Virus record (IMG/VR): IMGVR_UViG_3300046512_000087
Location: 1-64,000 of that record
DNA from: a virus
Length of the DNA: 64,000 nt
Direction: 5' to 3' (one strand)
The notes beneath the pieces were generated by a model that was not told the DNA's origin, made no database searches, and was given only the letters and a program-made list of their open reading frames with translations. Shown here in pieces: positions 1 through 64,000 of this stretch. The translations under genes and the position numbers were made by a program. Positions within the stretch are counted from its first letter, which is position 1. Every line of letters begins with the position of its first letter.

Positions 1-567
1 TGACTGCTCGATTTCCTTGGCTGCAATCACACAAGCCAGCGAGTCAACAACCAGTAGGGCTACTTCCTCGGCATGGATTAAGGCGTCGATCATGTCGGCG
101 GCTTCTTCACCATAACCCGGTTTCACCACAAGGAGCTTATCAACATCGACACCGAAGAATGCTGCCCAGTGAGGATCGAACGTGCCTTCCAGGTCTACCC
201 ACACAACTACGTTGCAGGGTGCGGGCTGGCGCTGGGCCTGGGCGGCTGCGCAATAGCAGATGTTGGTCTTGCCACTGGACTCAGGGCCATAGACGATGCT
301 GTAGCGGCTCTTAGGGAAACCACCCCCGGTAGCCAAGTCAAATTCGAACACCCCGGTAGCCAGTCGCTCTACCTGGGGAATAGTGTTGCCAGTGACGACC
401 ATCTGCTCGCCCTTGGATTTCTTGATACCTGCCAGGATCTGATTGATTTCACTGGCTTTCGAGGGAGTTACGCCAACTTTTACTTCCGGCGTTTTCGCTT
501 CTGGTTTTGCAATCAATTGCACGGGCTCCCCGGCCTTCTGTGTCTTGTCCCCAATCTTGAGCCCCAT
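1..567 (-). CDS. recA: RecA-like recombinase (runs off window start)
   Basis: Manual translation from the ATG at 567: ATGVFEFDLATGGGFPKSRYSIVYGPESSGKT (Walker A), VWVDLEGTFDP, LLVVDSLA (Walker B). Not in the ORF track because it is truncated. Confidence 0.92.
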   Translation of the reverse strand, partial: MGLKIGDKTQKAGEPVQLIAKPEAKTPEVKVGVTPSKASEINQILAGIKKSKGEQMVVTGNTIPQVERLATGVFEFDLATGGGFPKSRYSIVYGPESSGKTNICYCAAAQAQRQPAPCNVVVWVDLEGTFDPHWAAFFGVDVDKLLVVKPGYGEEAADMIDALIHAEEVALLVVDSLACVIAAKEIEQS

Positions 568-574
568 AAATCTA

Positions 575-967
575 CTACCCCTTCAGACTTGCAACGATTT
601 CAGTCATTTTTGCGGACACCCAGTCAGAGGCGTATTCATACGTTTCTTCGATATCGTTCACATGACTGGGCAGGGAAATGTTGACGTTGAATTTTACATT
701 TTCGTAATTGCCAGTGCTGATAGTCTGGCCACCGCCTACGTTGATGATCGCCATCTGGTCTGCCGGGATCAGGACGCCGGGGCTCAGTACCAGGGACTGG
801 TCAATCAGGGTGGTCTCCCCCTTGTTCTGGCCCTTCAGTACAGTCTTGACGGCTTCTACAGTCGCGGTAGTAGCCACGGCCTTGCCCTTGGGTGTACCCG
901 GCGCTAGATGCTCGCTGTAGTCAGCTCCGGCCTTGGCCGGGTCCTTACCAATGATCTTCAAGCCCAT
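575..967 (-). CDS. hypothetical protein
   Basis: 130-aa ORF packed in the minus-strand operon; begins MGLKI. Confidence 0.7.
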   Translation of the reverse strand: MGLKIIGKDPAKAGADYSEHLAPGTPKGKAVATTATVEAVKTVLKGQNKGETTLIDQSLVLSPGVLIPADQMAIINVGGGQTISTGNYENVKFNVNISLPSHVNDIEETYEYASDWVSAKMTEIVASLKG

Positions 968-971
968 GACG

Positions 972-1397
972 TTACTCCTGAATCCAGTTAGCCCGGATCA
1001 TGTCAGCCGTGCTTTGCAGCGCCTTCTCCTGGTCTGGAGACAGCGGCTTTGGGTTGTGTTCGAAAAAGTTGACCAGAGTGTTCAGCAGCGACACCTGATT
1101 GTCCGTGAAGAAGCGCCCCAGTGGATGCTTCAGAGGTTCCGGGAAGTAATCAGCCTCCCACCAGCTGCGCAGGGTGTACAACGACACGCCGAGGGCCTGT
1201 GACGCCTCAGTAAAGTTCTGGGTGTAGTGTGCGGGCAGCGCGGCTTTATTCTTCGCAGTCTGCTGAGCTTTACGCTCCAGGCAGGCTTGGCGATACGCAG
1301 GGTCATTCTTGTAGCGCTCTTTACGCTTTTCACTGTAGGTCTGCTTGTTCTTTGCATACCAGCGGGCATAAGCCGTCGTTTCTTGTTCGTCGCTCAT
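972..1397 (-). CDS. putative MerR-like HTH DNA-binding protein
   Basis: ASQALGVSLYTLRSWWEADYFPEP resembles a MerR/excisionase HTH; basic N-terminus. Confidence 0.6.
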   Translation of the reverse strand: MSDEQETTAYARWYAKNKQTYSEKRKERYKNDPAYRQACLERKAQQTAKNKAALPAHYTQNFTEASQALGVSLYTLRSWWEADYFPEPLKHPLGRFFTDNQVSLLNTLVNFFEHNPKPLSPDQEKALQSTADMIRANWIQE

Positions 1398-1400
1398 GTC

Positions 1401-2732
1401 TTAAACCTTTACCTGTTCAGCGGAAATTTCAAAATACTGTTTTTGGCGGCTGGAGGCATAGCCTTCCAACAAGCCGGAATCGTCTACCAAGTCAAAGATG
1501 ACCGGTGTCTTCTTGCCTTCCATGGTACGCATCACCCGGCCACATGCCTGCTTCACATCGGCCCGGGGTGACAGATACACCAGGGTGTCCCAGCGCGGGG
1601 CGTCGGTGCCTTCGGCGCACATTTTGTAGGTCGCGAAGATAACGCGCTTGGTCTCTTTCGCGGCCTTCTTGTCAGTCTCGGAACTCTTGCCGATGTAGTA
1701 GCCCATTTCGGCTGCCGGGACTTTCTTCAAGCAGAGGGCGTACATGACAGTCAGATGCTCAATCAGGTCTGACATCACAACGATCACACGCCCGGCAGCG
1801 TAGGCCTGGAAGATGAACTCCAGCAGCAAATGGTTGCGCTGAATGTCGTTAGCCATGGCCTTGTAGACCCCCATCAACCGGCCAGCGCTATGCGGGATGG
1901 GCTCAGTGACATACACGCCGTTCTTGAAGCGCTTGACCTTCGGAATCTTCCACCCGGACTTCTTGATCAGCACCTTAGGGCTCATGGGTACTGTCACGCC
2001 TACTACCATCACCCGGCCAATATGGGCTTCGATCAAACGCCACTTGCCATCAGAGCGGTTGCAGGTTGCGGACAGGGCCAGACGGTACAGAGCCGGGACC
2101 TTATGGCAAATCACCACGAAGGTGTCAGCACCCATACGGTGGGCCTCATCCACTATCATGGCGCCGAAGTACGAATACACCTCTGGCGGGTATCGGTCTG
2201 GGATCACCAGGGAGTGGACCATGCCAATGACAAACTTCTTGCCCTTGTAGTCACACACGTCCTGTTGAATGGTCCCGATATCCTGTGGGTCAATGCCGAT
2301 CAGGTTGATCAGGGTCTTGCGCCACTCATGGATCAGATCTTCTTTCGGGACCACGATCAGAGTGGGCTGACCCAGCCGGGCCATGATGGCGCACCCGCAG
2401 TAGGTCTTGCCGAAGCCTGTCGGGGCTTCCAAAGTGTGGTTAATACCCTTCTTTTGCAGCTCATAAGACTCAGCAATCAGCTGGGCCTGTTCCAAAGTCT
2501 TTGCACCGACTTTGCAATTGATTGCAAACGGCGTCTTCTGCACTCGCCAATCTTCGATCCCAACTGGAGCCAGCTGGCGGGGGATTCGGATGGTATTGCC
2601 TACCCGAACTGACATATTCACTTCATCGCCAAACTTGGTGATGAACTTGCACTTGGCTTCCAGCTCTGGAGTCCAGGGGAAGACGGCCATGCCATCAGTT
2701 CTGAGGGGTTGCTGTTGAATTAGGTAGGCCAT
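1401..2732 (-). CDS. superfamily II DEAH helicase
   Basis: APTGFGKT, IVDEAH, LSAT and QACGRVMR motifs. Confidence 0.92.
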   Translation of the reverse strand: MAYLIQQQPLRTDGMAVFPWTPELEAKCKFITKFGDEVNMSVRVGNTIRIPRQLAPVGIEDWRVQKTPFAINCKVGAKTLEQAQLIAESYELQKKGINHTLEAPTGFGKTYCGCAIMARLGQPTLIVVPKEDLIHEWRKTLINLIGIDPQDIGTIQQDVCDYKGKKFVIGMVHSLVIPDRYPPEVYSYFGAMIVDEAHRMGADTFVVICHKVPALYRLALSATCNRSDGKWRLIEAHIGRVMVVGVTVPMSPKVLIKKSGWKIPKVKRFKNGVYVTEPIPHSAGRLMGVYKAMANDIQRNHLLLEFIFQAYAAGRVIVVMSDLIEHLTVMYALCLKKVPAAEMGYYIGKSSETDKKAAKETKRVIFATYKMCAEGTDAPRWDTLVYLSPRADVKQACGRVMRTMEGKKTPVIFDLVDDSGLLEGYASSRQKQYFEISAEQVKV

Positions 2733-5042: not shown

Positions 5043-5510
5043 TTAGAACAGTTCAGCGACCTTCAGTGACCGGGACCCGTAAACCTTTTCGGTGAAGGTC
5101 TGGATCTCGCCATCAGTGAGGTACTTGCGAATGTCGGTGAGACCAACCTTGCCCACGGCGACGAAGACTTCGGGGGTCAGCTTCTTGATCATCAAGTCGC
5201 GGTCCACGATGTTGGTTTCCTCTCGGCACTTGCTGAACACCACTTGCCCGACCGTGCCCACGATGGTGACTTCCTGGTCGTGCTGGGTTTCGTTTGCAAT
5301 TGATTGCAAGCGCGACTTCAGTTCAGCCACCCGCTTGGTCATCGCATCCACTTCCAGCTTGACCAGTTGATCGGAGAGCGTAACCAGCTCGTCCACCAGC
5401 GCCTGGGTCTCGGTGATCACCTTGGTCTTCGCCGTAGGCTTCACAACCGGTTTGGCTTTCGCCGCTGGCTTCGTCTCCTGGGAGGACTTACTGCCAATTT
5501 TCAAGCCCAT
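5043..5510 (-). CDS. hypothetical protein
   Basis: ORF with MGLKIG start, K/P/A-rich linker and coiled coil; promoter upstream. Confidence 0.7.
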   Translation of the reverse strand: MGLKIGSKSSQETKPAAKAKPVVKPTAKTKVITETQALVDELVTLSDQLVKLEVDAMTKRVAELKSRLQSIANETQHDQEVTIVGTVGQVVFSKCREETNIVDRDLMIKKLTPEVFVAVGKVGLTDIRKYLTDGEIQTFTEKVYGSRSLKVAELF

Positions 5511-5544
5511 TTTGTACACCCTTTGAATAAGTTATGGAATTTGA

Positions 5545-7396: not shown

Positions 7397-8351
7397 TCAT
7401 TTGGTTTAGGAGTGCCATGGTTGCTGCAATCTCATCAGCACCCACTTTTTCCGTAGATGAAGTATCTTTTACCAGAGTGGGTTTGTCAAATAAAGGTGCA
7501 GACGCCTTGACTGGTTTAACGGGGGCAGGGATTGCAATCAATTGCACGGCGACGTCGTGGTACTGGACCAGGAACCCAATCACCGGCTGCTCAGGTGCAG
7601 TCGTCAACCCCTTCTTCGCTTTCACTTCCCAGGCAAACGCTGACCAATTCTGGAGGGCCCAGTCAAGCACCTCAAAGCAACGGTCTCCCAGAGGCTTGAT
7701 CAGGTGCTTGAGTTGACCCACCTCCTTGGAAGTCAATTCCTTCTGGTAGTTCCCGTCATTCAACAGAGACATGCGGCTTTTCCACAGCATAGCCATACCA
7801 GATGCTGTTACTTTGCCAGTAGGTACGGCTGATTTTTTGGCTTCTAATTTCGCCATGACGTCATTGAGTTTCATGTCCCCATCCCCTGCAACTTCAGTTG
7901 CGTAAAGAGTCTCTGTTGTAGTCTGTGTTGTAGTCTCTGTTATAGTTTTGCCCTCAGGGGCAAATGGAAGTTTACAAAAAGACAAATGGAATACTTCAGA
8001 AGGGCAATTCAGGACCTTCTTTCCCTCCACACAAACCAGCCTGCAATGCTGCGTTGGGCTCCCGTCAAAGCGCATGATCTCCGCTTCGATAATCCCCTTG
8101 CTGATTAAAACGTCCATGCAGCGACGGGCCTGTTTCAGCGTCATCCCCAGCTCTGCATTCCAATCCTTTGTAGACTTGGCCAGCCACCACTTCCCCTGGC
8201 GCAGTACACGGAGTTTAGACCCTCCGTTTTTGGCTGGCTGATACCAGTAGAAAATCTGACTCAGCATCAGCGCAGCCATCACATCCCCATCCAACAAATC
8301 AACATATGACCTTTGAAAGGCCACAACTTCGTTAGTTGGCTCTTCAGTCAT
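7386..8351 (-). CDS. replication initiator / replisome organiser
   Basis: AALMLSQIFYWY plus wHTH N-terminus and Thr-rich linker (TITETTTQTTTET), typical of phage initiators. Confidence 0.75.
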   Translation of the reverse strand: MTEEPTNEVVAFQRSYVDLLDGDVMAALMLSQIFYWYQPAKNGGSKLRVLRQGKWWLAKSTKDWNAELGMTLKQARRCMDVLISKGIIEAEIMRFDGSPTQHCRLVCVEGKKVLNCPSEVFHLSFCKLPFAPEGKTITETTTQTTTETLYATEVAGDGDMKLNDVMAKLEAKKSAVPTGKVTASGMAMLWKSRMSLLNDGNYQKELTSKEVGQLKHLIKPLGDRCFEVLDWALQNWSAFAWEVKAKKGLTTAPEQPVIGFLVQYHDVAVQLIAIPAPVKPVKASAPLFDKPTLVKDTSSTEKVGADEIAATMALLNQMSGS

Positions 8352-9046: not shown

Positions 9047-10126
9047 TTACAGTTTGCCCGGCGAGTTCTCGTCCAGGTTTTGCCAATACAGCTCGGGGGT
9101 TTCCGGCAGCTGGTCAAGGCGGATGAAAAGATCAGACATCATCTCCTGATCTGTCTTGCAATCAATTGCACAACCCGACTGCTCCAGAAGCCGCCAGATG
9201 AACGCAATGACCTGATCCTTGACACCGGCCTCAAGATGGCTCCGAACCTCCCAGGCGCTCACACGGACGCTACAGAGGGGCATCACGAACTTGGTCAGCA
9301 TGTACACGTCAGTCTTCTCGCCCTCGACCAGATACGGGCGAGTTTGGCCGGGATTTTCGAACTGACTACCGACGCCATCAGGCACTTCCAGGAAGCGGAT
9401 AAACAGACAGAGCTTTCCAGCTTCCGGGGCCAGGGTTACCGACACGGCAATCCGGCTGCCGTTTTTGTGGGCGATGACCGTGTAGACGTTTTCAGAGCCA
9501 CTGCTCTTTACCGTCTGCTTGACCGATAGGGAGGGCATGAACTGGTTCAGGTCGAAGGAGTGTTCTTCCTTCTGCTGCTCACCATTTGCAATAGGACCAC
9601 TGGCATATCCACCCTCCACCTTCTGCTCCATCAGCATGCTGGGGATGGGCTCGGGGTAACCAGGAACGAGGGTCACCAGCTTGTCGAGTGAGGAATTCAT
9701 ACTGGTCAGAGACTGGGATATAGCGAACTGGACCAGATCCAGCCCCTTTTTATCCTTTTTAGCGAGAGGCAGTCCATCACCCTGTAACCAATCGTCGTAA
9801 GCGTATTCAACTTGGTCTTTGCCCAAACAATTCTTTTCCAACAGTTTGAACATGGACTCCTTTCCAACACCTGCATCCAGAGCGGCCTTGAACTGTGACT
9901 TCAGGATATGCAACACCCCTGGAGTCACTGGGGCCTTCAGGTTCTTGAAGAAGTCCGGGTTTTCTGCCTTGAAGTTTTCAAAGTAGGCCTTCGCAGACTC
10001 TGCGGTAATACCGGCCTGACCCGCGATCTTTTTCATCAGCTCAAGAGGACCCATGCCGTATTGCAGGCCCAGCTTTATCTCTTTCTCGATCTGCTGTTTC
10101 GGGGAATTTTCAGGTAAATCAGACAT
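9047..10126 (-). CDS. hypothetical early protein
   Basis: Long ORF downstream of a consensus promoter and CAATGGAGTG leader. Confidence 0.75.
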   Translation of the reverse strand: MSDLPENSPKQQIEKEIKLGLQYGMGPLELMKKIAGQAGITAESAKAYFENFKAENPDFFKNLKAPVTPGVLHILKSQFKAALDAGVGKESMFKLLEKNCLGKDQVEYAYDDWLQGDGLPLAKKDKKGLDLVQFAISQSLTSMNSSLDKLVTLVPGYPEPIPSMLMEQKVEGGYASGPIANGEQQKEEHSFDLNQFMPSLSVKQTVKSSGSENVYTVIAHKNGSRIAVSVTLAPEAGKLCLFIRFLEVPDGVGSQFENPGQTRPYLVEGEKTDVYMLTKFVMPLCSVRVSAWEVRSHLEAGVKDQVIAFIWRLLEQSGCAIDCKTDQEMMSDLFIRLDQLPETPELYWQNLDENSPGKL

Positions 10127-10187: not shown

Positions 10188-11366
10188 TTAAAGCCAGTTG
10201 TGCTGCTTAATCAGCGTGTAAACCAGCTCTGAAACCTCGGCATGGCTGTAGTCATCACCGGCAGTTTTCAAGGCTGTAGTGATAGCCATCAGGTGCGATC
10301 CAGCTGGAGCCTTTCCCATCAGCGTCTGGTACACGCGCATAGCGAAGGTGCGGCCATCCGTGAAGCCCATGCGCGGGATCTTCAGCACCAGATCAATGCG
10401 GCCTTCCCGATACAGCTCAGACGGGATGACAGCCACGGCGTTAGTAGTCATGACAGTAATGATCCGGCCCTGGTGCTCTGCCAGCCACCACAACAGCTGG
10501 CTCATGATGCGCTGGGTTACCCCGCCGTCATCCTTGTCATTGAAGACCTTCTCGATCTCGTCCAGCAGCAACACGCAGGGAGATTCCCGCTCCAGCAAGG
10601 CCAGGGCTCTCGACACCCGAGCCTCGGACTCACCAATGTATCTGTTCAGCGTAGACGCGATGTCCAGACGGAACAACGGGCAGCCAAAGAACTTGGCAAT
10701 AGCCTTGGCCGACATGGATTTGCCCACGCCAGGAGGGCCATCCAGCAGTACGCCACGGGGAACCAGCTTGGGCGGCGTGTTGGGGTTCACGAAGTATTTC
10801 TTGTTCAGCTCCAACCACTTCGTCAGCTTTTCTGGGAAGTCGTAGAAGTCGTAGTCAGTTTCAATCGGGATCAAGCCCTGAACCTGTTCCCCCAGCTGGG
10901 CGCGGGTACGGCGCAGCGCCACCGAGGACATCTCGCCCTTGGCCTGGGTCAGCCGCAGCACCTCGTCGGACTTCTTCAGGCTCAAACCCTTCAGGACTGG
11001 GTACAGGGTCAGCGCTTGCCCGGCTTCCACGAAGTCTTCCAGCAACTGGTAGACCATTTCCTTCGGCGTGGAAAGCACCCCGCAGTCCATGATCAGGTCA
11101 GAGCCAGCGTGCGGAGGATTGAACACCACCAGCGTGTGTTCCTCCTTTCGAAACAGCAGGTAGAGAGCTTCGGTCACCAGATCCGCGTCGTCTGTCCAGT
11201 AGACACCGGGCCCCAGAGATTTCACATTGGCTGCCAGCTTCAGCATCTTGTGTGTGGACTCGAACACCGTGTCTGCAATTGATTGCAAAACCCGGATGCG
11301 GTTAACCGGGTCATCGGTATGCACGCCAACCACGGGAATCTGGGCTTTTAATGCCAGTTCTAACAT
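10188..11366 (-). CDS. AAA+ ATPase (Ycf46/SpoVK-like)
   Basis: PRGVLLDGPPGVGKS, LLLDEIEK, TTN and REGRID motifs. Confidence 0.88.
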   Translation of the reverse strand: MLELALKAQIPVVGVHTDDPVNRIRVLQSIADTVFESTHKMLKLAANVKSLGPGVYWTDDADLVTEALYLLFRKEEHTLVVFNPPHAGSDLIMDCGVLSTPKEMVYQLLEDFVEAGQALTLYPVLKGLSLKKSDEVLRLTQAKGEMSSVALRRTRAQLGEQVQGLIPIETDYDFYDFPEKLTKWLELNKKYFVNPNTPPKLVPRGVLLDGPPGVGKSMSAKAIAKFFGCPLFRLDIASTLNRYIGESEARVSRALALLERESPCVLLLDEIEKVFNDKDDGGVTQRIMSQLLWWLAEHQGRIITVMTTNAVAVIPSELYREGRIDLVLKIPRMGFTDGRTFAMRVYQTLMGKAPAGSHLMAITTALKTAGDDYSHAEVSELVYTLIKQHNWL

Positions 11367-11376: not shown

Positions 11377-11763
11377 TTACAGAGAAGCCAGCATCTGGCC
11401 GTAGGGGGTCACCTGACCGTCTTCTGCAATCAATTGCAAAACAACCGGGCCATTGAAGTCATCGGCGGTCGTGGCGTAAGGGTTGAACAAAGTCTTCGGT
11501 ACTGGCTCCAGGTCTTCCAAGTAGCGGAACTCCACGGGGAGCTTTATGCCGCCGAAGTTGGAGTGGAAGCACACCACGCCATTGGGCTCTTTTAAAACCA
11601 CCCGGACTTTCGTGGATTGCAACCGCTCAGGGAACGCTGTGAACTTTGGAATGGGGCGATTCAGAGCCCGTAATGCCTGGGCTTGTGCAGCGAATACTGC
11701 GTGTGCGGGGGTTACAGCCTCAACGACTTCATAACTACCATTCGAGACGAGCAATACTTTCAT
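11377..11763 (-). CDS. hypothetical protein
   Basis: Likely start is the ATG at 11763, after a CAATGGAGTG leader and promoter. Confidence 0.65.
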   Translation of the reverse strand: MKVLLVSNGSYEVVEAVTPAHAVFAAQAQALRALNRPIPKFTAFPERLQSTKVRVVLKEPNGVVCFHSNFGGIKLPVEFRYLEDLEPVPKTLFNPYATTADDFNGPVVLQLIAEDGQVTPYGQMLASL

Positions 11764-13495: not shown

Positions 13496-13955
13496 CCAGG
13501 TAATACAGCCATGATACGAACCCGACGTACACCGGCCCCAGAAAGTCTACTGAAGTGATAACCCCATCGAACAGACCGGTGTACCAGAGTGCCAACCACA
13601 CACAGCCAGCAAAAGCGTATCCGGGTGTGCGAGCCTTCACCAACATCACTGTCAAAAAGTGAGGCTGGTACTGGGGTCCTTTTACATGAATCCTTTTGAA
13701 GCTCCACACCTCCAGCAGGCAAGGCAGAAGTACGCCAAGGCTGGACAACAGCAGGGCAAGATCCCAGGCCTTCTCGTATCGAGCCAGGGACCAGCTACCA
13801 AACTGGATGGGGTCATAGCTGGTATATGAGGCAAAGACACCAAAACAGAACATTTGGATGCCCAATAAGAGTCTTACTGCTGACTTAGGTGCTTTGTTGG
13901 GCATGCGACGATCCGTTTTGCAATTGATTGCAGCACTGTCCATTTTACGAGTCAT
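13428..13955 (-). CDS. multi-pass membrane protein (lysis-associated)
   Basis: About 4 hydrophobic segments; overlaps the holin. Confidence 0.6.
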   Translation of the reverse strand: MTRKMDSAAINCKTDRRMPNKAPKSAVRLLLGIQMFCFGVFASYTSYDPIQFGSWSLARYEKAWDLALLLSSLGVLLPCLLEVWSFKRIHVKGPQYQPHFLTVMLVKARTPGYAFAGCVWLALWYTGLFDGVITSVDFLGPVYVGFVSWLYYLDAKTQRRVHCGNEKRRPFTAFY

Positions 13956-16171: not shown

Positions 16172-16578
16172 TAGATCACCAGGGAAATTGAGTTGGTCGT
16201 CACCTCGCCACCTTCATACCAGCGGCCAACGTCAATGATAAGGTCTGCTGTACTACCCGGCAAACTTATCCCAATGTCCAGATCAGCATGGGCCAGTCCA
16301 TTGGCATCTTCCAGCCGGGCCCAGGTCGGGTCACCCGTGTGGGTAATCGTGGTCGGAGACACAAACCGCAGGGGCAAAGCTCCGGTTACGGGGGTGCCCG
16401 CCGAGGGCTTGAGGAAAACCAGGACCACGATAGCCGTCTCAGTGGTGGGGTCCCCGGTATGCATGGGCCGGGTTCCACCGTAGATCCTCATCCGGCCAGG
16501 GCCTGCCCCACTGTCCACAGCGCTTGCAATCAATTGCAAAACCGAGGCCTTGATTGCATCTGAGTATCCTACCGTCAT
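16171..16578 (-). CDS. virion structural protein
   Basis: RIYGGTRP...TWARLED pattern seen in tail-module proteins. Confidence 0.6.
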   Translation of the reverse strand: MTVGYSDAIKASVLQLIASAVDSGAGPGRMRIYGGTRPMHTGDPTTETAIVVLVFLKPSAGTPVTGALPLRFVSPTTITHTGDPTWARLEDANGLAHADLDIGISLPGSTADLIIDVGRWYEGGEVTTNSISLVI

Positions 16579-19282: not shown

Positions 19283-19329
19283 AAATCTCCTGCAATTGAT
19301 TGCACGGGCCGGAGCCCGCGTCTTGAAAT

Positions 19330-28385: not shown

Positions 28386-28460
28386 GTTAATACTCCATTA
28401 AAAGAAAAGGCCCCCTAAGGAGCCTTCGCATTCTGTTGCTTCGTGCAATCAATTGCAAGA

Positions 28461-31830: not shown

Positions 31831-31901
31831 TGCCCTGTTACTCCACTGTTTTGGGAAAACCCGATTCTAGGGCCTTCTTGCAATTGATTGCAACGCCCAA
31901 T

Positions 31902-38363: not shown

Positions 38364-38389
38364 AGGGTTTTGCAATTGATTGCAGGAAA

Positions 38390-43665: not shown

Positions 43666-44723
43666 ACTCCATTGGTTTCAAGTTTTTTCTTGCGGATGAA
43701 AATCTTGGCTTGTTTCCCTGGCATGACCGGGAAGGCCCCAGTGACAAGAAAGCCGGACTTCGTTTTTTCTGGCTCTGGCGGTTTCGGCGGAAACTTGGAC
43801 TGCTGTTCCTTGATCTTCGAGTCGTAGTTGTGAAGAGCGCCAAGGTCTTTCACCTGCTGCCAGTTCACTTCCGAACCAAACAGATGCGGTTTCAGCTTGT
43901 TCACCACATCCAGGCAGTAAAACACATCCTGAGAACAAGCAACTGGGCACTCTGAGTTCAGGATCATTTCCGGGATCTGACCAGAGCGCTGTACATCCAG
44001 GATCGTGTACAGGCCCTGCCCAAAATGTTCGTACAGCATGCCCTTGTTGAACATCGGGCCATTGTTGTGGGCCAGGGTGTACGAAGTGTCCAGCATCACT
44101 TCCATGCTGGTCTTCCCATGCAGCATATGCTCCAGGGTCTGAGAGATCAGGCCCCAGGGCTTGCCGCCGTAGCCACCACCAAACTTTCCGTTGTTGAACA
44201 TATAGGTGATGCCAGACGACAGGACGCCAATGCTGGTCTCCATATTAGATTCAACAAAGGCATTGGCCGCTGCATCAGAGCCCTTCCCCCGGATTTCCCG
44301 GTTGAAGTCAAAGGTCTCCATACCGTACAGCTCTTTGTACTTGGCCCAGAATGCATCCGTGCTGTGGTCATGGATATGCCGGGACTCACGCACGGTGATC
44401 AGAATCATGTAGAACAACATCCGAGTACCCTGGCGCTCCAGAACCTGATGGTAAATCTGGGCCACCTTGGCAGCCCATTCAGGAAGTGGTTCGTTCGGCG
44501 TGAACTCGGCTTTCACAACAGCCATCAAATGGTTCATGGCGTAGAAGTCTAGGGCTTCCCTTTCAGGTACGGCTTTATTCAGCCCGCCCTTCTCGACTTT
44601 ACCTTTCCAGAACTCTTTGCAATTGATTGCAAGAACCTTTGATGGCGTGGACATCAGCTTGACGGGTCGGATGTACGGTGACTCCGAATACCAGCTCAAA
44701 GTCTGCGATTTGCCGTGTAACAT
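43662..44723 (-). CDS. conserved-looking protein of unknown function
   Basis: 353 aa; motifs RESRH, GGYGGKPW, LAHNNGPMFNKG; own promoter. Confidence 0.8.
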   Translation of the reverse strand: MLHGKSQTLSWYSESPYIRPVKLMSTPSKVLAINCKEFWKGKVEKGGLNKAVPEREALDFYAMNHLMAVVKAEFTPNEPLPEWAAKVAQIYHQVLERQGTRMLFYMILITVRESRHIHDHSTDAFWAKYKELYGMETFDFNREIRGKGSDAAANAFVESNMETSIGVLSSGITYMFNNGKFGGGYGGKPWGLISQTLEHMLHGKTSMEVMLDTSYTLAHNNGPMFNKGMLYEHFGQGLYTILDVQRSGQIPEMILNSECPVACSQDVFYCLDVVNKLKPHLFGSEVNWQQVKDLGALHNYDSKIKEQQSKFPPKPPEPEKTKSGFLVTGAFPVMPGKQAKIFIRKKKLETNGV

Positions 44724-45844: not shown

Positions 45845-45848
45845 GATT

Positions 45849-46301: not shown

Positions 46302-48269
46302 TCATGCCAGCAACTCAGCAATCAGCTGGCGCTCGGTAATGTAGCCATGTTCAGTCACTACCCCGAAGCTCACGATCTTGATCCCCTGGCTTAGCTTCCA
46401 TTCCAGCACCTTAGTCACGGCTTCTGTCGGTTTACCCGTCCAGACCACATCCTGTTCTGCCATTACCAGCTGCTCAAGATCTTTGGCGGAGGCCACGGTT
46501 TTGAGTTTGGTTTTCCATGGGGTCAGCACCCTTAGCTTTTTCTTTTGGTCTTCAGTGAGGCTGGACTCCAACATTTCAATCAGGGCTATATCCTTGGACT
46601 TGTCGTGATCCTCCGAGCGGAAGGGAGCAAAGAACTGCTGTTCCTCATGCCCAAGGGCTCTCGACAAGTCCAGGGTCAGGTCGAAGCTCTCATTGAGGGC
46701 CTTCTTCACGTAGTCCACGGCTTCGAGTACCGGCATGAACAGCAGCTCTGGCATCCGCAACAGCACCCCGTTGGTGACCAGCTTGTGTTCACGGGTGATC
46801 TCGTTGCAATTGATTGCAGCCCACATCATGGCCTTGAACTGCTGGATGTACGGGTCGGCACTGCCGTCAATAACGGGTACTTCGTGCATCCATACCCTGC
46901 CGGTGGCTCCATCAATGGAGACGGTGTTGCCCTCGACAAAGAAGCTGATGTCGGCACCGAGCCCAACCACACAAGGCTTGTTCATGCCCCTGGCAACTAC
47001 CGCTGCGTGGGAGGTGGCGCCGCCAGTCATGGTCAGCACACCCTTGGCAGCATTCATTCCCCCAATGTCATCCGGGGTAGTTTCAGCGGTCACCAAGATG
47101 CACGGGGTTTTGCAATTGATTGCAGCTTTCGATGAGGTGACGATCACTCCGCTTACAACACCAGAACAGGCGGGAATTCCCACGTAATCAGCCACGTTCA
47201 GGTAGTTAGGGTCCAGGATCGCCATCTGAGCCGTGTCGAACTGCTTGGCTGTAACCCGCTTCAGCGCCGCCTTGTAGGTCAGGGAGTAATCCTGGCACAG
47301 ATCCAAGGCCAGTCTCACCGCCGCCCTGGCGCTACGCTTGGCATTCCGGGTTTGCAGGATGTAGAGCTGGCCGGACTGTACAGTGAATTCAACATCCTGC
47401 ACGTCCTTGCGCTGCTCTTCCAGCTGGGCCACGGTATGCATCAACTGGTGGTACGCCTGAGGGTTCCAGGCTTCCATTTGCTGCAACGGGTCTGGGGTGC
47501 GGATGCCAGCCACCACGTCCTCGCCTTGAGCCTTGATCAGGTACTCACCCAGGATATACGGCTCGCCGCTGTCAGGGTTACGGGTGAACAGGACACCAGT
47601 GCAGGACTTGTCATCCATGTTGCCGAAGACCATGGCCTGGACTGTCACGGCTGTGCCCCACTCTTCAGGGATGCCATTCAGGTCCCGGTAGATCTTGGCC
47701 CGAGGATTCTGCCAGCTTTCGAACACTGCCTTGATAGAGCCCAGGATCTGTTCCTCGGCATCCGGGAATTCTTCCTCGGCGTGTGCTTCGTACAGGTCCG
47801 ACCGTTTATTCAGGTCCAGGCCTTCGAAGTGTTCACGGGGAATACCGGCCACTACACTGCCGTACATTTCAATCAACCGACAGGCGCTGTCGTTGGTGCA
47901 TTCCTCGCCAATGCGCTTGGACCATTCTTCATAAGTGCCGGTGTCCAGACCCACGTTCAGGATCGTATCCATCATCCCGGGACAACTCACGCGAGCCCCC
48001 GAGCGCACCGACACCAGAGGCATGTAGCCAAAGTGCTTCTGGAGAGCCTTCAGATAAGGCTTGATCTCCTTCCGCACTTTAGTCATGAACTTGTCGGGGT
48101 TTTTGCAGAACTCTGCGTAGTTGGTCGTCGGGATCACGAAGCCAGGAGGAATGGGCAGACCTTCTTGGGTCATCTTCACCAACCCGGCGCCTTTACCCCC
48201 CAGGACCTCTACCGATTCTTCTTCAACGCTGTAGCCTTTGAGACCAAAAGCCTGGATATTTAAAGACAT
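46302..48269 (-). CDS. PPDK-like dikinase (ATP-grasp + phospho-His domains, no pyruvate-binding barrel)
   Basis: LGGKGAGL, PLVSVRSGA..PGMMDTILNVG, QGEDVVAGIRTP, QDVEFT..LQTR, GGATSHAAVVARG. Confidence 0.9.
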   Translation of the reverse strand: MSLNIQAFGLKGYSVEEESVEVLGGKGAGLVKMTQEGLPIPPGFVIPTTNYAEFCKNPDKFMTKVRKEIKPYLKALQKHFGYMPLVSVRSGARVSCPGMMDTILNVGLDTGTYEEWSKRIGEECTNDSACRLIEMYGSVVAGIPREHFEGLDLNKRSDLYEAHAEEEFPDAEEQILGSIKAVFESWQNPRAKIYRDLNGIPEEWGTAVTVQAMVFGNMDDKSCTGVLFTRNPDSGEPYILGEYLIKAQGEDVVAGIRTPDPLQQMEAWNPQAYHQLMHTVAQLEEQRKDVQDVEFTVQSGQLYILQTRNAKRSARAAVRLALDLCQDYSLTYKAALKRVTAKQFDTAQMAILDPNYLNVADYVGIPACSGVVSGVIVTSSKAAINCKTPCILVTAETTPDDIGGMNAAKGVLTMTGGATSHAAVVARGMNKPCVVGLGADISFFVEGNTVSIDGATGRVWMHEVPVIDGSADPYIQQFKAMMWAAINCNEITREHKLVTNGVLLRMPELLFMPVLEAVDYVKKALNESFDLTLDLSRALGHEEQQFFAPFRSEDHDKSKDIALIEMLESSLTEDQKKKLRVLTPWKTKLKTVASAKDLEQLVMAEQDVVWTGKPTEAVTKVLEWKLSQGIKIVSFGVVTEHGYITERQLIAELLA

Positions 48270-48508: not shown

Positions 48509-49467
48509 TCGTCCACCAGATCGTAGTCGTCACGGATGCAAACCCAGGTCGGGAACCGAGGCTTGGTTTTGATCCCTTTGGGGAAGAACTTGAACTTGAT
48601 GACCTTCTCGACAATCTTGCCGGGGTTCTGCCAGAAGTCCAGGGCTTCCTTCTCGGTCATGTTACCCGGAGACACCGTGATCTTGTCCCCTTTCTTCAGC
48701 AACAGTTTCTTCGAGTGGGCGTCGAACACGTCTTCCATCAGGGTGCAGAGCATGTTGCCAAGCATGCCATTCGGGATCATGTTCTCCTGGTGGCTGGTGC
48801 GAAAGGTCTTGCCCAGCTCATTCTTCTGAGCCACGTTCCCGTTCTTATTGCCTTCGGTGATTTCGTTCACCATGGCGTTGGCTTCCATGAAACCCTTGAT
48901 GCGCAGGTAGCCACCTTCTCGCACGGTGCTACGGCCTTCCTTGTGTGGCAGGTCGAGTGCTCGCATGATCGAGCCCTCGTAGCCTTCAGAGAGCCACAGG
49001 TCATCCATTGCCAGCACTTCTTCCTTGGTCTTGGCGATGATCCAGGGAACGAGGCGCAGGTTGTCTGCAAGACCTTTATCTTTCAGCTCGTTGTAGCGGA
49101 TGTCTCGCAGGGCCAAGCGGTCGATATAGGGCAGGCTCCGGGATTCAGGAGTCAGGTAGTCGAACAGCCACCAGTCCAGGGCGTTCGTCTTGTCCTTGCT
49201 ACTGGTCACCGAGGTTGTGCCTCGGCACAAGTCCGGGTGGGTGGACATACCCTTGAGAGCCAGCTCACCATCGAAGCCGTTGTACTCAAAGCGGTCAAAG
49301 CAACGGTTCACGAAGACGTTGGGGAAGCGCTTCAACGACCGGCCTGTCAATGGCCCGTCCAGAGCCAGGGCCCGCACGCCGTCAATCTTCGGCATCAAAA
49401 TTACGGGGAATTTCTGTTTATCCAGGTCAGCGTCACAGGCGAGATACGGCTTCGTCATGGTTTGCAC
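48505..49467 (-). CDS. ATP-dependent DNA ligase
   Basis: PKIDGVR (KxDG), FDGEL, LFDY, GYEGSIMR and PRFP motifs. Confidence 0.93.
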   Translation of the reverse strand: MQTMTKPYLACDADLDKQKFPVILMPKIDGVRALALDGPLTGRSLKRFPNVFVNRCFDRFEYNGFDGELALKGMSTHPDLCRGTTSVTSSKDKTNALDWWLFDYLTPESRSLPYIDRLALRDIRYNELKDKGLADNLRLVPWIIAKTKEEVLAMDDLWLSEGYEGSIMRALDLPHKEGRSTVREGGYLRIKGFMEANAMVNEITEGNKNGNVAQKNELGKTFRTSHQENMIPNGMLGNMLCTLMEDVFDAHSKKLLLKKGDKITVSPGNMTEKEALDFWQNPGKIVEKVIKFKFFPKGIKTKPRFPTWVCIRDDYDLVDE

Positions 49468-49672
49468 TCAATTGCAAAGTTAGGAGTTGTACCAGCAGGG
49501 CAGCGAGAAATACTCGGTACTCCAGCGGGTCTTGGACTGCATGGCGCGGCACAACCACCGCACCTGTTGACTATCACCAACTACCACCCAACGGGGCAGC
49601 CATAAGAACACGATCTTTTGGGACTCGGAATGCTTCATATCTGCCTCCGGGGTGGATTTGGTTTGAAGTTGT

Positions 49673-49700: not shown

Positions 49701-50016
49701 ATGATTTTGCAATTGATTGCACGCGAGCATCCCGCAGGCGTACACGGCGCTTCAGGGTCTGAAGGCTGTAATACACCATCTTCTCTGCGTCGTATACGCC
49801 GTCCTTGTCCATGCCCGGCTTGAACAAGTCCTGCTCCCTGGCAGCGCAAGAACGCCAGATAGCCTTGAACTGGTTGCCCTCGGCAAACGTCATGTTCAAA
49901 GCGTTGATGATGTCCTCACACTCACAGGTGTAGGGCTCTGGCAAGTTGGCAGGCTCGGGCACAAACAGCTTGTAGTACCCAACTGACCCACCAGTAGCCT
50001 TCTGTTCTTCACTCAC
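49681..50016 (-). CDS. DUF3310-like protein (T7 gp1.7 nucleotide-kinase-related)
   Basis: YY....ECEDIINALNMTFAEGN.FKAIWR...D.EK..YY pattern. Confidence 0.6.
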   Translation of the reverse strand: MSEEQKATGGSVGYYKLFVPEPANLPEPYTCECEDIINALNMTFAEGNQFKAIWRSCAAREQDLFKPGMDKDGVYDAEKMVYYSLQTLKRRVRLRDARVQSIAKSLDKPST

Positions 50017-52939: not shown

Positions 52940-52971
52940 ATGTTTTGCAATTGAGTGCAAACCCTCACAGG

Positions 52972-53241: not shown

Positions 53242-53510
53242 TCTGCATCCTTAATCTGCTGGGGAGTGGTGCCGCCAAAGACAGCAGGTTCACCGTCTTC
53301 TACGTGCCATGGGATGTCATGCTCAGAATGGTCTGGGCACAACTTGATGTTCTGGCTGCCAATATGCACCAGATCCGTGTTACCGCAAATCGGGCAGACT
53401 TTACTGGTCGGCATGTGAGTTCCGTTTCTTGCAATTGATTGCACGCTCTTGCTCGACCCGTTCCCGGAATTCTGCAAGGGCAGCTCGTTGTTCTGGGGTG
53501 GCCAGTTCAT
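53238..53510 (-). CDS. small Zn-ribbon protein
   Basis: CPIC...CPDH; start uncertain. Confidence 0.5.
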   Translation of the reverse strand: MNWPPQNNELPLQNSGNGSSKSVQSIARNGTHMPTSKVCPICGNTDLVHIGSQNIKLCPDHSEHDIPWHVEDGEPAVFGGTTPQQIKDAE

Positions 53511-53840: not shown

Positions 53841-53985
53841 AAGGCCCGTGCAATTGATTGCAAAGGCCTTCTATTTCACCTTGACCCAGCGGATGGAGCA
53901 GTACAGCAGTTCTCCCTGGCTACGGGTCTTTGGAGTCGTCAGCTTCTGCCGCACTGACTTCACTGTCCTCCAGGTTTCAGCTCCG

Positions 53986-55165: not shown

Positions 55166-55341
55166 ACCTTGCAATTGATTGCAGGATTATTTCACCGGCT
55201 CCAGCGACTTGTCTTTCACCATGGTCAGCGGTGGGCTTCCCGCGTCTTTCTCCAACATGACGATGAAGAACACTGATACAACGAGGACAAACACCAAGGC
55301 AAACAAGACCCGGATCTTCAACGGTATTACTCGACGAGATT

Positions 55342-55641: not shown

Positions 55642-55674
55642 AACATGCACTCCATTGTTGGGTTAGTTCCCGTT

Positions 55675-58739: not shown

Positions 58740-58783
58740 GTCTTTCTCCGAAAGCGGTTTTGCAATTGATTGCAGGAATCTGG

Positions 58784-61105: not shown

Positions 61106-61108
61106 GGG

Positions 61109-61886: not shown

Positions 61887-62218
61887 TTGGTCACCTCTGC
61901 TACGCAGTGAAAGGTAACGGTTTCAGTAGAAACGATCTGGCCCACGGTGTTGGTGTACTCGACGTCGAAGCACAGGTCTCCCAACGGCCACAGCGCGGTG
62001 CTGGGCGCACTGGTCAGAACATACAGGCCCATGAACTCTTCACTTTTGGTCACGGTCAGCGTTTCTACCAGGAGATCCTTCTTACGGACCTGGGCGCGGA
62101 TAGACCAACCTTGGAGTTCTTGCAGTTTCCCGTCCACGCGAACTTCCCCGGTGAGTACCAGGGTATTTCCGCGCTTGTGGGTGAGTGAGGCAGTCATGGT
62201 GGCGTCCCGGCAATTCAA
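61883..62218 (-). CDS. BppU-like beta-sandwich fibre-attachment protein
   Basis: KRG.T....L.GWSIRAQVR...T..WP.G...FDVEY...TET pattern. Confidence 0.55.
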   Translation of the reverse strand: MNCRDATMTASLTHKRGNTLVLTGEVRVDGKLQELQGWSIRAQVRKKDLLVETLTVTKSEEFMGLYVLTSAPSTALWPLGDLCFDVEYTNTVGQIVSTETVTFHCVAEVTK

Positions 62219-62272
62219 CTCAGCAGAGTCTAATCAGGCCGGGGCCACCGTGCAATTGATTGCAGGAGGGAG

Positions 62273-62452
62273 TTACAGTTGCTCTTTGCAGAAGTAAACG
62301 ATTTTGGCGCGGGGCTTATCTTTTATCAGCTTCTCCACATACCGGTCTTTAGCCTTGCCACATAGTTCTTCCGTGGCCCAATACTGCTTCTTCACCGTAC
62401 ATTGTGGTTCCATGTAGGCGAGACAGGTCCAGACAATAAAAGCCCAATGCAT
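62273..62452 (-). CDS. small hypothetical protein
   Basis: 59-aa ORF (MHWAFIVW...) coupled to the upstream stop. Confidence 0.45.
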   Translation of the reverse strand: MHWAFIVWTCLAYMEPQCTVKKQYWATEELCGKAKDRYVEKLIKDKPRAKIVYFCKEQL

Positions 62453-63153
62453 TACTGCTCTCCGTTCAGTTTACTGATTTCCTGCAAGCGTTGCAGCCAT
62501 ACCGGTGGGGAGGTATGGCGGTACAGCTTGTCGCCGCGCTTCAATGGACTGCCGTCCTCGCCGTAGATGAATTCGGCAAACAGACCTTCGTCACCCTCAT
62601 TGATTATCGCCACCGGCTCGCCACTACGCTCAGCCATCGCATATTCGAGCGCCTGTATCCGCTCCAATTGCTGCTGATTGATGATGTACCGTGTCGGCTC
62701 GCCATCTTCATTGACGGGCTCACTGATGGTGATTTCGTTCGACAGCGTGTGCTCGGCGTTACCGTTGTACCAGCGAGGTACTGCGGGCTCAGGAGTGGAT
62801 GTACTTTCTACCAACACGAAGTCATCGGTGTAGTCCATGCAGTTGCAGTCAACTACGTTCGTTTCGCCTACTGACTCGCACTGGCAGAACAGCGCCGTCA
62901 GTTTCTCGAACAATTCGTCACTCATGGCAGTAGCTACTTCAGCTTTTGTCAGCGTAACGGTTCGGCGCTCTTTGTCTTGTGGGTGTTCGAACTCGAACGA
63001 AAGCGTTTCTGCGGGCTCTGGCGTGGCGGCGAGCGCTGGCGCTTTAAAGGTGTTCAGCTCTGCTACCAGGGCCCGTAGCTCGCCAACCGTTACCTGGAGG
63101 TTGCAGTCAAAACCGACCTTGTAGGTGTCATGCAATTCTGGAGGGATTTTCAT
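62452..63153 (-). CDS. hypothetical mosaic phage protein
   Basis: 233-aa ORF with EPVA and LYRH.P low-complexity phage motifs. Confidence 0.65.
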   Translation of the reverse strand: MKIPPELHDTYKVGFDCNLQVTVGELRALVAELNTFKAPALAATPEPAETLSFEFEHPQDKERRTVTLTKAEVATAMSDELFEKLTALFCQCESVGETNVVDCNCMDYTDDFVLVESTSTPEPAVPRWYNGNAEHTLSNEITISEPVNEDGEPTRYIINQQQLERIQALEYAMAERSGEPVAIINEGDEGLFAEFIYGEDGSPLKRGDKLYRHTSPPVWLQRLQEISKLNGEQ

Positions 63154-63154
63154 A

Positions 63155-64000
63155 TCAGTTCCCCGGAGCCTTGGGCTTCAGCATGAAGTGGGTGGGGTTG
63201 ATGGTCTTGGTCTCCCACTCGTCGTTGTAACCATTCCACACCGCACCTTGCCAGCCGATGTCGTCAACCCAATGCCCTTCGACCACGCCTTCGGGATTGA
63301 AGTCTGGACATACCAGTTCTGGTCCGTACAGGAACATGCCTGGGATGTACTTGTCTTTGATGTCGGCAATGGGTAGCCATACCAGGGCCGGGTGCTTACC
63401 CTCTTTGACCACCCGGTAGACCCGTTGTACGTCCCAGATCTTACGTCCAAAGGTATCTGGATGCCCCCAGTCGGCTGTGCGGAAATCCTGGTAGTTCTTG
63501 TCAATCCCGTTGTCATGCTCAAAGTCATGACGGTACGAGTAGCCAAACAACTCGAAGTTACCCTGGCCAGCCTCAACCGAGATCGAAGGGTCGAGAGCCA
63601 TCTTGCACTCAATTGCAATCAGATCGGCCAGGGCCTTACGCGGGTCTCGTTCGTGGTTGATGGTCAGGCTATGGTTGATCACCAGGGCATCCAGCACCGC
63701 TTCTTTCCAGCCCTGGGCTTCCTTCAGCTGGTTGAGTGCATCTTGCAGGTTGGCTGTAACTGCCTTGTGCAACTTGATGATGTCTTTGGCTAGAAGCACC
63801 CCTGCCTTGTCGTAGTCCACCCGGGCATCACTGTCTGTCAGGCGTCCGGCTTCCCACACCGTTTCGTGGTACTTGGACAACAGGACTTCGAGGTCCAGGC
63901 TCTCTGCCGGGTTACGGCCAATGCTGGCGCCCAAGAGGTGGATCATCATGGCGAAGTTGGCCACGTCCACCGGGTCACCCTTGTCCATGTGTTCCCACAG
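63155..64000 (-). CDS. hypothetical protein (start probably outside window) with DUF551-like C-terminus
   Basis: KGDPVDVANFAMM; C-terminal WLPI...PTHFM. Confidence 0.65.
   Translation of the reverse strand: MWEHMDKGDPVDVANFAMMIHLLGASIGRNPAESLDLEVLLSKYHETVWEAGRLTDSDARVDYDKAGVLLAKDIIKLHKAVTANLQDALNQLKEAQGWKEAVLDALVINHSLTINHERDPRKALADLIAIECKMALDPSISVEAGQGNFELFGYSYRHDFEHDNGIDKNYQDFRTADWGHPDTFGRKIWDVQRVYRVVKEGKHPALVWLPIADIKDKYIPGMFLYGPELVCPDFNPEGVVEGHWVDDIGWQGAVWNGYNDEWETKTINPTHFMLKPKAPGN

Follow-up and report, generated by a model that had tools for sequence, protein, structure and literature searches.

A 14-bp palindrome repeated along the chromosomes of distantly related siphophages: a probable operator array and a candidate phage-encoded reader

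The stretch of DNA analyzed here, hereafter the window, comprises bases 1 to 64,000 of the 93,403-base IMG/VR virus record IMGVR_UViG_3300046512_000087 (95% complete by CheckV; the genome is called G000), in which 129 of 130 genes, as called from open reading frames (ORFs), lie on the minus strand. Our subject is a 14-mer, TGCAATTGATTGCA, that recurs throughout it. Pattern search finds 28 exact copies in the window, 20 on the plus and 8 on the minus strand, together with three one-mismatch copies at 49463, 52946 and 63604, all of the form TGCAATTGAGTGCA and each with TGCACT as one half-site. The original prediction, made from the letters of the window alone, had given the same counts and had placed them far above chance, and dinucleotide shuffles bear this out with an expectation of 0.02 copies. 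In the full record there are 47 exact copies (32 forward, 15 reverse) and 0 copies of the reversed control word. Shuffling synonymous codons with all protein sequences kept leaves 0.07 copies in coding DNA, against the 30 observed; the array is therefore unexplained by codon or peptide bias, and an artefact of that kind is ruled out.

The site is an inverted repeat of 6+2+6 architecture whose centre is TG/CA in all 47 cases. Alignment of the 47 oriented sites shows a weak extra symmetry, YYT-14mer-ARR, with the flanks otherwise unconserved. A centre of CG, which would bring the site to the LacI-operator form to which it had been likened, is confined to rare intermediates and a few distant lineages, and no LacI-family protein was seen among the 27 proteins scanned, a part of the genes; that likeness is accordingly set aside. 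Nine genomes were compared, including G000, four uncultured complete or near-complete genomes (G001, G002, G003 and G005), Stenotrophomonas phage DLP5, Vibrio phage SIO-2, Rhizobium phage RHph_TM16 (TM16) and RcZahn. The sites of the window are given below, exact unless marked otherwise, with "in place" denoting a site kept at the aligned position of the orthologous gene in the genome named.

508..521, minus strand: 3' part of the UvsX/RecA-like gene 1-567 (minus strand; cut by the record end)
2513..2526, plus strand: superfamily 2 (SF2) helicase gene 1401-2732, frame AINC; in place in G001 as AIDC
5295..5308, plus strand: gene 5043-5519 for a 158-aa protein (LQSIA); in place in DLP5 and G001
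7533..7546, minus strand: in the O-like/DnaD-like initiator gene 7386-8351, close to its 3' end; in place in DLP5, G002 and G005; some 43 nucleotides (nt) downstream is a TTTGACAAACC promoter
9157..9170, minus strand: near the 3' end of gene 9047-10135
11274..11287, plus strand: 5' part of the AAA ATPase gene 10188-11366
11425..11438, minus strand: in the end of gene 11377-11826, upstream of the AAA ATPase start by about 60 nt
13919..13932, plus strand: 5' end of ORF 13428-13955
16525..16538, minus strand: 5' end of gene 16171-16578
19291..19304, plus strand: intergenic, abutting the ribosome-binding site of gene 17897-19282
23621..23634, plus strand: near the 3' end of the tape-measure gene 23483-27742; in place in G005
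26702..26715, minus strand: middle of the tape-measure gene 23483-27742
28444..28457, minus strand: intergenic, 4 nt past the stop of gene 28461-29471, then a terminator-like hairpin
30271..30284, plus strand: 5' part of gene 29893-30342; in place in G001 and G005
31879..31892, plus strand: intergenic, directly after an intrinsic-terminator-like hairpin with a T run
34731..34744, plus strand: abutting the ribosome-binding site of the prohead protease gene 34117-34722, a gene with a site no more than 100 nt upstream in seven of the nine genomes
36139..36152, minus strand: gene 34912-36522, whose DLP5 homologue, gp002, carries the annotation ParB-like nuclease domain protein; in place, but with a flipped centre, in G002, G005 and DLP5 (LQLIA versus LQSIA)
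38371..38384, plus strand: intergenic, upstream of the portal gene 36510-38333, then a terminator-like hairpin
42528..42541, plus strand: inside gene 42036-42899
44618..44631, plus strand: 5' part of gene 43662-44723; in place in G005
46805..46818, plus strand: inside the PPDK-like kinase gene 46302-48269
47111..47124, plus strand: middle of the PPDK-like kinase gene; in place in DLP5, G001 and G005 (AAINC or AAIDC)
49463..49476, minus strand: one-mismatch site, half-site TGCACT
49708..49721, plus strand: 6 nt upstream of the -35 box of a TTGGACAAACC-N12-TACGAT promoter
52946..52959, plus strand: one-mismatch site, half-site TGCACT
53430..53443, plus strand: 5' part of the small gene 53238-53510
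53849..53862, plus strand: intergenic, within a GGCC stem followed by a T run (terminator-like)
55170..55183, plus strand: intergenic, 4 nt past a stop codon, with a TTTGACAAACC-N12-TAAGAT promoter whose -35 box follows 3-4 nt downstream
58761..58774, plus strand: intergenic between genes 58784-61105 and 56667-58739, upstream of a ribosome-binding site
62251..62264, plus strand: intergenic, 9 nt past a stop codon
63604..63617, minus strand: one-mismatch site, half-site TGCACT

Fifteen of the 47 sites in the record (32%) are intergenic, against 6% of the genome, and in six genomes taken together 65% of sites have a gene boundary no more than 100 nt away, where random placement gives 33% (P ~5e-26). 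About 20 copies had been placed inside ORFs in the frames QLIA, QSIA, AINC and AIDC; these frames are real, and about 19 of the 28 exact window copies do fall inside called ORFs, with the amendment that most of them are no more than about 150 nt from a gene end. In the sense direction the usual order is a stop codon or terminator, the site 2-10 nt further on, and then a sigma-70-like promoter or a ribosome-binding site. At about ten early promoters, of the form TTGaCAAACC-N12-TAaGAT, the site ends 3-13 nt before the -35 box (49708, 55170, 64327, 67800, 69770, 71696, 73196 and 90279); other sites adjoin a ribosome-binding site (19291, 34731, 58761, 65443, 86496 and 87751) or stand after or within terminator-like hairpins (28444, 31879, 38371 and 53849). 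This site-before-promoter arrangement is seen in G000, G001, G005, DLP5, RcZahn and SIO-2, and in it the centre of a bound dimer would fall at about -47 to -51. The promoters themselves form a sigma-70-like family with a shared leader carrying CAATGGAGTG at the ribosome-binding site; its members lie at about 49640-49700, 55100-55165 and 7440-7490 in the window and at 64260-64320, 67730-67795, 69700-69765, 73130-73190 and 90200-90275 of the record, and the family, with the palindrome upstream, is found in G001 and G005 as well.

The sites are also evenly spread, as had been proposed. The coefficient of variation (CV) of the gaps is 0.50, against about 1.0 both under a random null and under a null that preserves the preference for gene junctions, and none of the simulated site sets reached the observed value. 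The longest gap, 4.3 kb, compares with a simulated median of 8-9 kb, again also under the junction-preserving null; within the window it is the interval of 4330 bases from 19291 to 23621, the figure of about 4.3 kb originally given. Orientation is biased more weakly. The sense strand of G000 reads TGCAATCAATTGCA at 32 of the 47 sites, and among 214 sites in six genomes the TCAA centre is on the sense strand in 146, versus 68 in the other orientation. The bias is alike inside ORFs (66%) and between them (72%) and thus is not due to coding constraints. In G002 (IMGVR_UViG_3300037261_000012), 29 of 30 sites share one centre orientation relative to transcription, versus about 2:1 in the other genomes.

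Relatives were found by protein and pattern searches only, a megablast of 12 kb of the window against the phage collection having given no match. Counted as a 10-mer or as a 14-mer, the word is the commonest in each of the four uncultured genomes, with 39 copies in G001 (GC 55%), 30 in G002 (47%), 22 in G003 (61%) and 50 in G005 (62%); DLP5 has 26 exact copies, and the word is the top 14-mer there too. DLP3 and Summit, which like DLP5 are cultured Stenotrophomonas phages, have 25 and 27 copies, respectively, of TGCAATNNATTGCA. Protein identity among these genomes is 30-45% over a minority of genes, and G003 has just 14 proteins in common by BLASTP. Further off, the site takes the form TGCAAT-[CT]A-A[TC]TGCA in RcZahn and TGCAA-CATA-TTGCA in TM16, and in SIO-2 it mostly has one imperfect arm, with TTAA, TCAA or TTGA at the centre. 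The invariant core is TGCAA-N4-TTGCA, the array is present in all nine genomes compared, and symmetric variants also occur in dozens of IMG/VR contigs. The enrichment thus holds in the full genome and in relatives as well as against the codon-preserving shuffle.

Phages that carry the word range in GC from 35 to 62% and have Stenotrophomonas, Rhodobacter or Vibrio hosts; since the word is common to phages of unrelated hosts, a phage factor is favoured over a host factor as its reader. Among the matches listed in a search of one genome per prokaryotic species there were scattered single matches, the exceptions being two short clusters on contigs of Comamonas testosteroni and Paraburkholderia elongata. 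Judged from those matches, the word would not be a chromosome-wide host motif of the uptake (DUS/USS), Chi, matS or parS type. The last 6.3 kb of Comamonas testosteroni SWCO2 scaffold 10 (L192) holds four exact 14-mers and the Paraburkholderia elongata locus (L193) two, each set within a few kb. These loci may be resident or contaminating relatives and hence a hint to the host; tblastn of the Comamonas locus against the phage proteomes gave one short match only. The host factors IHF, sigma-54, FNR and SlmA, and the host parS site, were considered and rejected, as the site does not match their consensus and the motif goes with the phage from one unrelated host to another.

Comparison of orthologous sites indicates that selection acts on the DNA rather than on the peptide, as originally proposed from the several frames in which the word is read. 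In 76 of 246 comparisons an in-gene site is kept at the aligned position, in proteins that are 30-50% identical, and the kept positions often have a flipped centre (LQLIA/LQSIA, AAINC/AAIDC), so that Leu and Ser, or Asn and Asp, are exchanged; the synonymous shuffle points the same way. Between DLP5 and DLP3 all 12 arm bases are kept at 24 of 27 sites, versus 13% expected, in flanks that are 84% identical. The centre changes seen between these two phages (TTGA to TCGA, TCAA to TTGA, TTAA to TCAA) indicate that the flip goes via perfect palindromes, which stay rare. Changes in one arm without compensation in the other are found at nearly all SIO-2 sites and many RcZahn sites, where the terminator-site-promoter layout is kept; they therefore speak for a dimeric protein that binds duplex DNA and against a hairpin in RNA or DNA. 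That a dimeric protein binds along the whole genome, the central claim of the original prediction, is thus the most likely reading, given half-sites that change singly and diverged lineages with symmetric variants of both arms. The array is, in all likelihood, a set of protein operator sites.

Which protein would read it is suggested by the gene content of the group. An iterative profile search over the nine proteomes finds 12 proteins in all nine genomes, namely the SF2 helicase, a DnaB-like helicase, the AAA ATPase, a family A polymerase, the portal, the protease, the large terminase, the UvsX-like recombinase, a Cas4-like exonuclease, a 260-aa protein with a zinc signature, a 130-aa protein and a 264-aa protein. 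The last of these is encoded outside the window, at 89406-90200 of the record (L268:5406-6200, minus strand), and its DLP5 homologue, gp066, has the annotation hypothetical. Database search gave 257 matches in all; across the more than 100 relatives listed, all unnamed, the core (residues 26-165) shows 62-82% identity, which is well above the genome-wide identity of about 40-45%. In seven of the nine genomes, G003, TM16 and RcZahn included, a site lies 60-110 nt upstream of the gene, tied best among conserved genes, and in G000 and DLP5 it adjoins the gene's own promoter, a position that is the usual mark of an autoregulated DNA-binding protein.

In the predicted structure, residues 26-160 form a helical domain with a predicted local distance difference test score (pLDDT) above 90, and residues 1-25 are disordered. 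A homodimer is predicted with a score of 0.75, the best of three controls scoring 0.00; among proteins of solved structure, 20 of 30 pairs of one chain attain that mark and 1 of 23 single chains does, counts that hold only roughly here because a custom alignment was used, and the runs agree in at least 84% of contacts with a partner pLDDT of at least 75. VIA-align matches the core to DNA-binding domains (DBDs) of the ParB group over 95-117 residues, with Z-scores of 7.7 for the ParB DBD-parS complex 6s6h, 6.8 for Spo0J 1vz0, 6.7 for the KorB DBD-operator complex 1r71, 6.0 for KorB 8qa8, 4.8 for SopB, 4.3 for P1 ParB and 4.0 for VirB, against an unrelated background of about 4. Leads from Atlas are DUF3102 and a ParB helix-turn-helix. 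Together the models point, at moderate Z-scores, to a resemblance to a ParB/KorB-type helix-turn-helix core.

Most of the 79 IMG/VR loci fetched via the 264-aa protein carry the motif family, at identities down to 24-33% and GC contents down to 35%, and different lineages have different symmetric variants: a TTAA centre, a TCGA centre, GGCAAT..ATTGCC, TGACAT..ATGTCA, TGAAAT..ATTTCA and TGCACT..AGTGCA. In the locus L336 (IMGVR_UViG_3300025572_000001, 66939-87616), 27 copies of the perfect palindrome TGCAATTAATTGCA are packed into 20.7 kb, six times the density of the window. The predicted recognition helix, RKAxYL, and a GWTK segment are nearly invariant in the family. The L336 homologue has YW instead of YL in that helix, and over the family YW goes with the clade that has the TTAA centre, while replacement of the Lys (RT, RV or RN) goes with altered arms or an altered centre. 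This covariation of helix and motif is suggestive.

Several points count against the 264-aa protein as the reader. The top VIA-align match is not ParB but the Raf1 alpha domain, at Z 9.0, and scores of 6 to 8 are in a range where common helical arrangements can score (the tool warns of this for Z <8). Foldseek of the model against the PDB gives nothing below an E-value of 0.3, the protein has neither a Pfam family nor a PDB sequence match, and PDB profile searches returned nothing meaningful. The covariation rests on few, possibly related, lineages; any core gene of the clade would co-occur with the motif; and the gene lies in the recombination and replication block, not among regulators. Taking sequence and model together, we nonetheless regard the 264-aa protein as the best candidate reader, and as slightly more likely than not in that role.

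Other candidates fare less well. Of the binders named in the original prediction, the DUF262 protein (51131-51943) has no homologue in any relative, and the Zn/wHTH protein (45849-46262) and the MerR-like protein (972-1397) are present in five and six of the nine genomes, respectively, while the array is in all nine. No Pfam ParB_N domain is found in the 264-aa protein or in four aligned relatives. A separate 285-aa ParB_N protein (record 77460-78317), with a GGYHR motif, adjoins the terminase genes in G000, G001, DLP5, TM16 and RcZahn; hhalign finds no relation between it and the 264-aa family. As a sole reader the ParB_N protein was downgraded, true orthologues being present in five of the nine genomes and absent from G005, which has the densest array.

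We propose the following explanation. The 14-mer would be a double-stranded operator whose arms, TGCAA(T) and (A)TTGCA, lie one helical turn apart, read by a phage-encoded homodimer, so that the 47 repeats form a chromosome-wide array. Bound dimers would regulate early promoters, the reader's own included, giving autoregulation and shut-off; a dimer at -47 to -51 could compete with contacts of RNA polymerase through the C-terminal domain of its alpha subunit and the UP element, or could touch polymerase itself. Along the single direction of transcription bound dimers may act as roadblocks or insulators, the in-gene sites ensuring that no stretch longer than about 4.3 kb is without one. In this way the chromosome as a whole could be controlled or silenced, for instance while DLP5 is in its reported plasmid-prophage state. 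Silencing of the whole chromosome would be of evident use to DLP5 and DLP3, since both form lysogens and DLP5 has been isolated as a phagemid (PMC7326821). Among the roles listed in the original prediction, which ran from segregation and self-marking to nicking and DNA entry, stoperator-like or global regulation fits this anatomy best. We hold the explanation as a whole, with an operator array, the 264-aa dimer as reader and global transcriptional control or silencing, to be tentative, at a little short of an even chance; a transcriptional role for the bound sites, taken as a separate question, is slightly more doubtful again.

Three further considerations tell against this account. Repressor-operator immunity pairs usually diverge fast, and this site is invariant across very distant phages. 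A promoter regulator needs neither even spacing nor sites in the middle of genes. Lastly, a symmetric dimer gives no reason for the 2:1 orientation bias (29:1 in G002). Because even spacing, kept mid-gene sites, invariance of the site and the location of the reader gene fit a plain regulator poorly, we keep a structural role as the main rival.

In that rival, the same sites, probably with the same binder, would build a nucleoprotein that serves compaction, segregation of the plasmid prophage or shielding of the DNA, and the binder might work with the ParB_N protein (record 77460-78317) as a "split ParB." Even spacing and the lack of large gaps would follow naturally, as would the in-gene sites kept in place, and the predicted ParB-family fold of the 264-aa core, the GGYHR protein beside the terminase genes in five genomes and the carriage of DLP5 as a phagemid (PMC7326821) all agree with it. 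However, the 264-aa protein is without the CTPase domain needed for sliding, orthologues of the ParB_N protein are not universal (SIO-2 has none, and G002, G003 and G005 have other architectures only), no ParA was seen among the proteins scanned, which are a part of the genes, and the strong placement at promoters and junctions would be unneeded. We consider a structural role unlikely, though it survives best among the rivals. A more specific form of it is less likely still: here a CTPase-less protein on an invariant lattice, alone or with the ParB_N protein, would coat or organize the phage chromosome in a layer that marks it as self or silences it and is preserved unchanged among alpha-, beta- and gammaproteobacterial phages, serving plasmid-prophage carriage or the protection of modified DNA, not ordinary promoter control.

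Comparably improbable is a different phage protein as reader, be it the O-like/DnaD-like initiator (7386-8351), the 130-aa protein (575-967), or the MerR-like or ParB_N protein, with a role in replication, recombination or packaging such as dispersed sites for an initiator or loader. The motif does track the replication and recombination module, which is the part that G003 has in common with the other genomes, the 130-aa protein is universal, and the initiator gene bears a site conserved in place, recalling the lambda origin inside gene O. Yet G003 and SIO-2 have no such initiator, the MerR-like protein is missing in G003, TM16 and RcZahn, the model of the 130-aa protein has no helix-turn-helix, though at low confidence (pLDDT 55), and none of these genes has a consistent site just upstream.

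It is more doubtful again that the sites are cut, nicked or chemically marked, as T5-like single-strand interruptions or as landmarks for hypermodification of the DNA. Even spacing would suit such sites, the PPDK-like kinase, thymidylate-synthase-like genes and sugar genes are conserved, and the DNA of DLP3 resists 15 restriction enzymes (PMC7326821); but resistance to many enzymes points to a general base modification and not to one at a 14-bp site, no nickase is tied to the sites, and placement beside promoters and ribosome-binding sites is unexpected for nicks.

Two readings are least probable of all. A hairpin in RNA or single-stranded DNA, acting in processing or stability, as part of a terminator, or as a priming signal at Okazaki-fragment intervals, would account for the many sites that abut ribosome-binding sites or terminators, for the preference for TCAA on the sense strand (146 versus 68) and for changes between lineages that keep the arms complementary, but its stem would be 5-6 A/U-rich base pairs only, one third of the sites are in the other orientation, and one-arm variants, in which pairing is broken, predominate in SIO-2 and are frequent in RcZahn in the same contexts. 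Joints at which phages exchange modules by crossover, comparable to linker sequences or PeSL cassettes, would suit sites at gene junctions that are identical across diverged phages, the recurrence of a site-plus-promoter cassette in the variable early region (49-74 kb) and the repeat recombination proposed for Cluster O phages (PMC4351075), but homology breakpoints among DLP5, DLP3 and Summit lie within 30 nt of sites in 0-6% of cases versus 2% at random, which is no enrichment, fourteen bases are short for homologous exchange, and in-place mid-gene sites and even spacing would go unexplained.

Other conserved and variable genes of the record deserve mention. Pfam has no family for the 264-aa, 130-aa, 137-aa, 158-aa and 183-aa proteins. 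For the universal 130-aa protein (window 575-967) the model, at pLDDT 55, shows no visible helix-turn-helix and is too poor for a fold search. The 260-aa protein (window 2769-3551, minus strand) is present in all nine genomes, has no Pfam family and carries invariant His67, Cys81, Cys93 and Cys96; in G003 it is fused into a 438-aa protein. The His/Cys3 spacing is that of the T4 gp32 zinc site, and the protein is probably the phage's single-strand DNA-binding protein. A block at 42970-48269 of the window, with the PPDK-like kinase, two small phosphatase- or thymidylate-synthase-like genes and a gene for a 353-aa protein, is kept in eight of the nine genomes; in view of the reported resistance of DLP3 DNA to 15 restriction enzymes (PMC7326821), its products may modify DNA bases. 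From 49000 to 64000 of the window and on from 64000 to 74300 of the record there are about 50 small genes without a homologue in the four uncultured relatives, and the site-plus-promoter cassette recurs between them. This variable early region looks hyperplastic and similar to the PeSL regions of T4-type phages. Finally, the record starts and ends within one UvsX/RecA-like gene (window 1-567; record 92677-93396, L268:8677-9396): a 239-aa piece at the record end resembles the N-terminal part of UvsX/RecA orthologues of 383-388 aa, and the open ORF 1-567 fits the remainder. The "linear" record is therefore a circularly permuted or circular assembly opened in the middle of a gene.

Siphophages of 80-100 kb with this array are a widespread group and include DLP3 and DLP5, both proposed for therapy against Stenotrophomonas maltophilia. 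The array is a strong signal at the level of the DNA, and it links a protein family without a Pfam entry to a precise 14-bp site in a way that is directly testable in culturable systems. If true, the proposed explanation would account for the quiet plasmid-prophage state of a genome that is transcribed one way. The near-invariance of the site across distant phages would then reflect a binding code frozen by its many copies. Should the role be global silencing or organization, it would extend the idea behind KorB and the stoperators to a new reader architecture.

Several known systems resemble parts of this picture. The IncP-1 plasmid RK2 has 12 OB sites, which fall into classes. Like the phage site, OB is a palindromic operator of 13-16 bp spread over a whole replicon, in some cases just upstream of a -35 box and in others remote or intragenic, and its reader KorB is a ParB-type helix-turn-helix protein, the DBD of which (1r71) matches the 264-aa model at Z 6.7, and a global regulator on a plasmid-like element. 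Promoters as far as 1.5 kb off are within the reach of KorB (PMC11790492). In contrast, the 264-aa candidate is without the ParB_N/CTPase domain and would therefore form no sliding clamp by that mechanism, the phage array has 47 sites rather than 12, evenly spaced, often intragenic and with an asymmetric centre, no KorA or IncC partners were identified in the phage, and the element is a phage and not a conjugative plasmid.

Among phages, the sequences of stoperators differ between the immunity groups of Cluster A, unlike the site described here, which is invariant across very distant phages. In phages such as L5 the repressor gp71 has more than 20 copies of a short site genome-wide, some at promoters and others in short gaps between genes, oriented in relation to transcription and proposed to block both initiation and elongation (PMC9283540). 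The phage array is likewise made of many short sites over the genome at promoters and in intergenic gaps, with one-way transcription and a partial orientation bias. Unlike the palindrome, with its putative dimeric reader, stoperators are asymmetric 13-mers read by a two-domain monomer; the orientation bias of the phage array is about 2:1, except for 29:1 in G002, and many of its sites are mid-gene. The plasmid prophages P1 and N15 also have many sites per protein over about 50-95 kb, in the C1 operators and the dispersed centromeres, and link maintenance with lytic control. The P1 operators are asymmetric 17-mers at promoters and N15 has four centromere sites only, and neither set is evenly spaced or gene-embedded at the density of the phage array.

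A further parallel is in the Cluster O mycobacteriophages, which have more than 30 genome-wide copies of a 17-bp dyad repeat, TGTTCGGNNNCCGAACA, with invariant arms and an asymmetric A/T-rich centre of weak orientation; about 40% of the copies are intergenic, many near gene 5' ends, and some are intragenic, and a dimeric binder has been inferred, the function not being known (PMC4351075). That repeat differs in sequence and phage lineage and belongs to one tight cluster of five genomes, whereas the present site extends over phages of several proteobacterial classes and comes with a reader candidate, a putative autoregulatory site, a link to promoters and even spacing. The exact 14-mer string is absent from the searchable literature, where no report of the array was found, and the genome papers of DLP3 and RcZahn do not mention the palindrome. 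Thus the kind of feature is already known, from the Cluster O dyad repeat, the Cluster A stoperators and the KorB operators; what is new is the site itself, its wide distribution among phages of Stenotrophomonas, Rhodobacter, Rhizobium and Vibrio, the evidence that it is evenly spaced and conserved in place with flips of the centre, and a candidate reader with a predicted ParB-like DNA-binding fold and no clamp domain.

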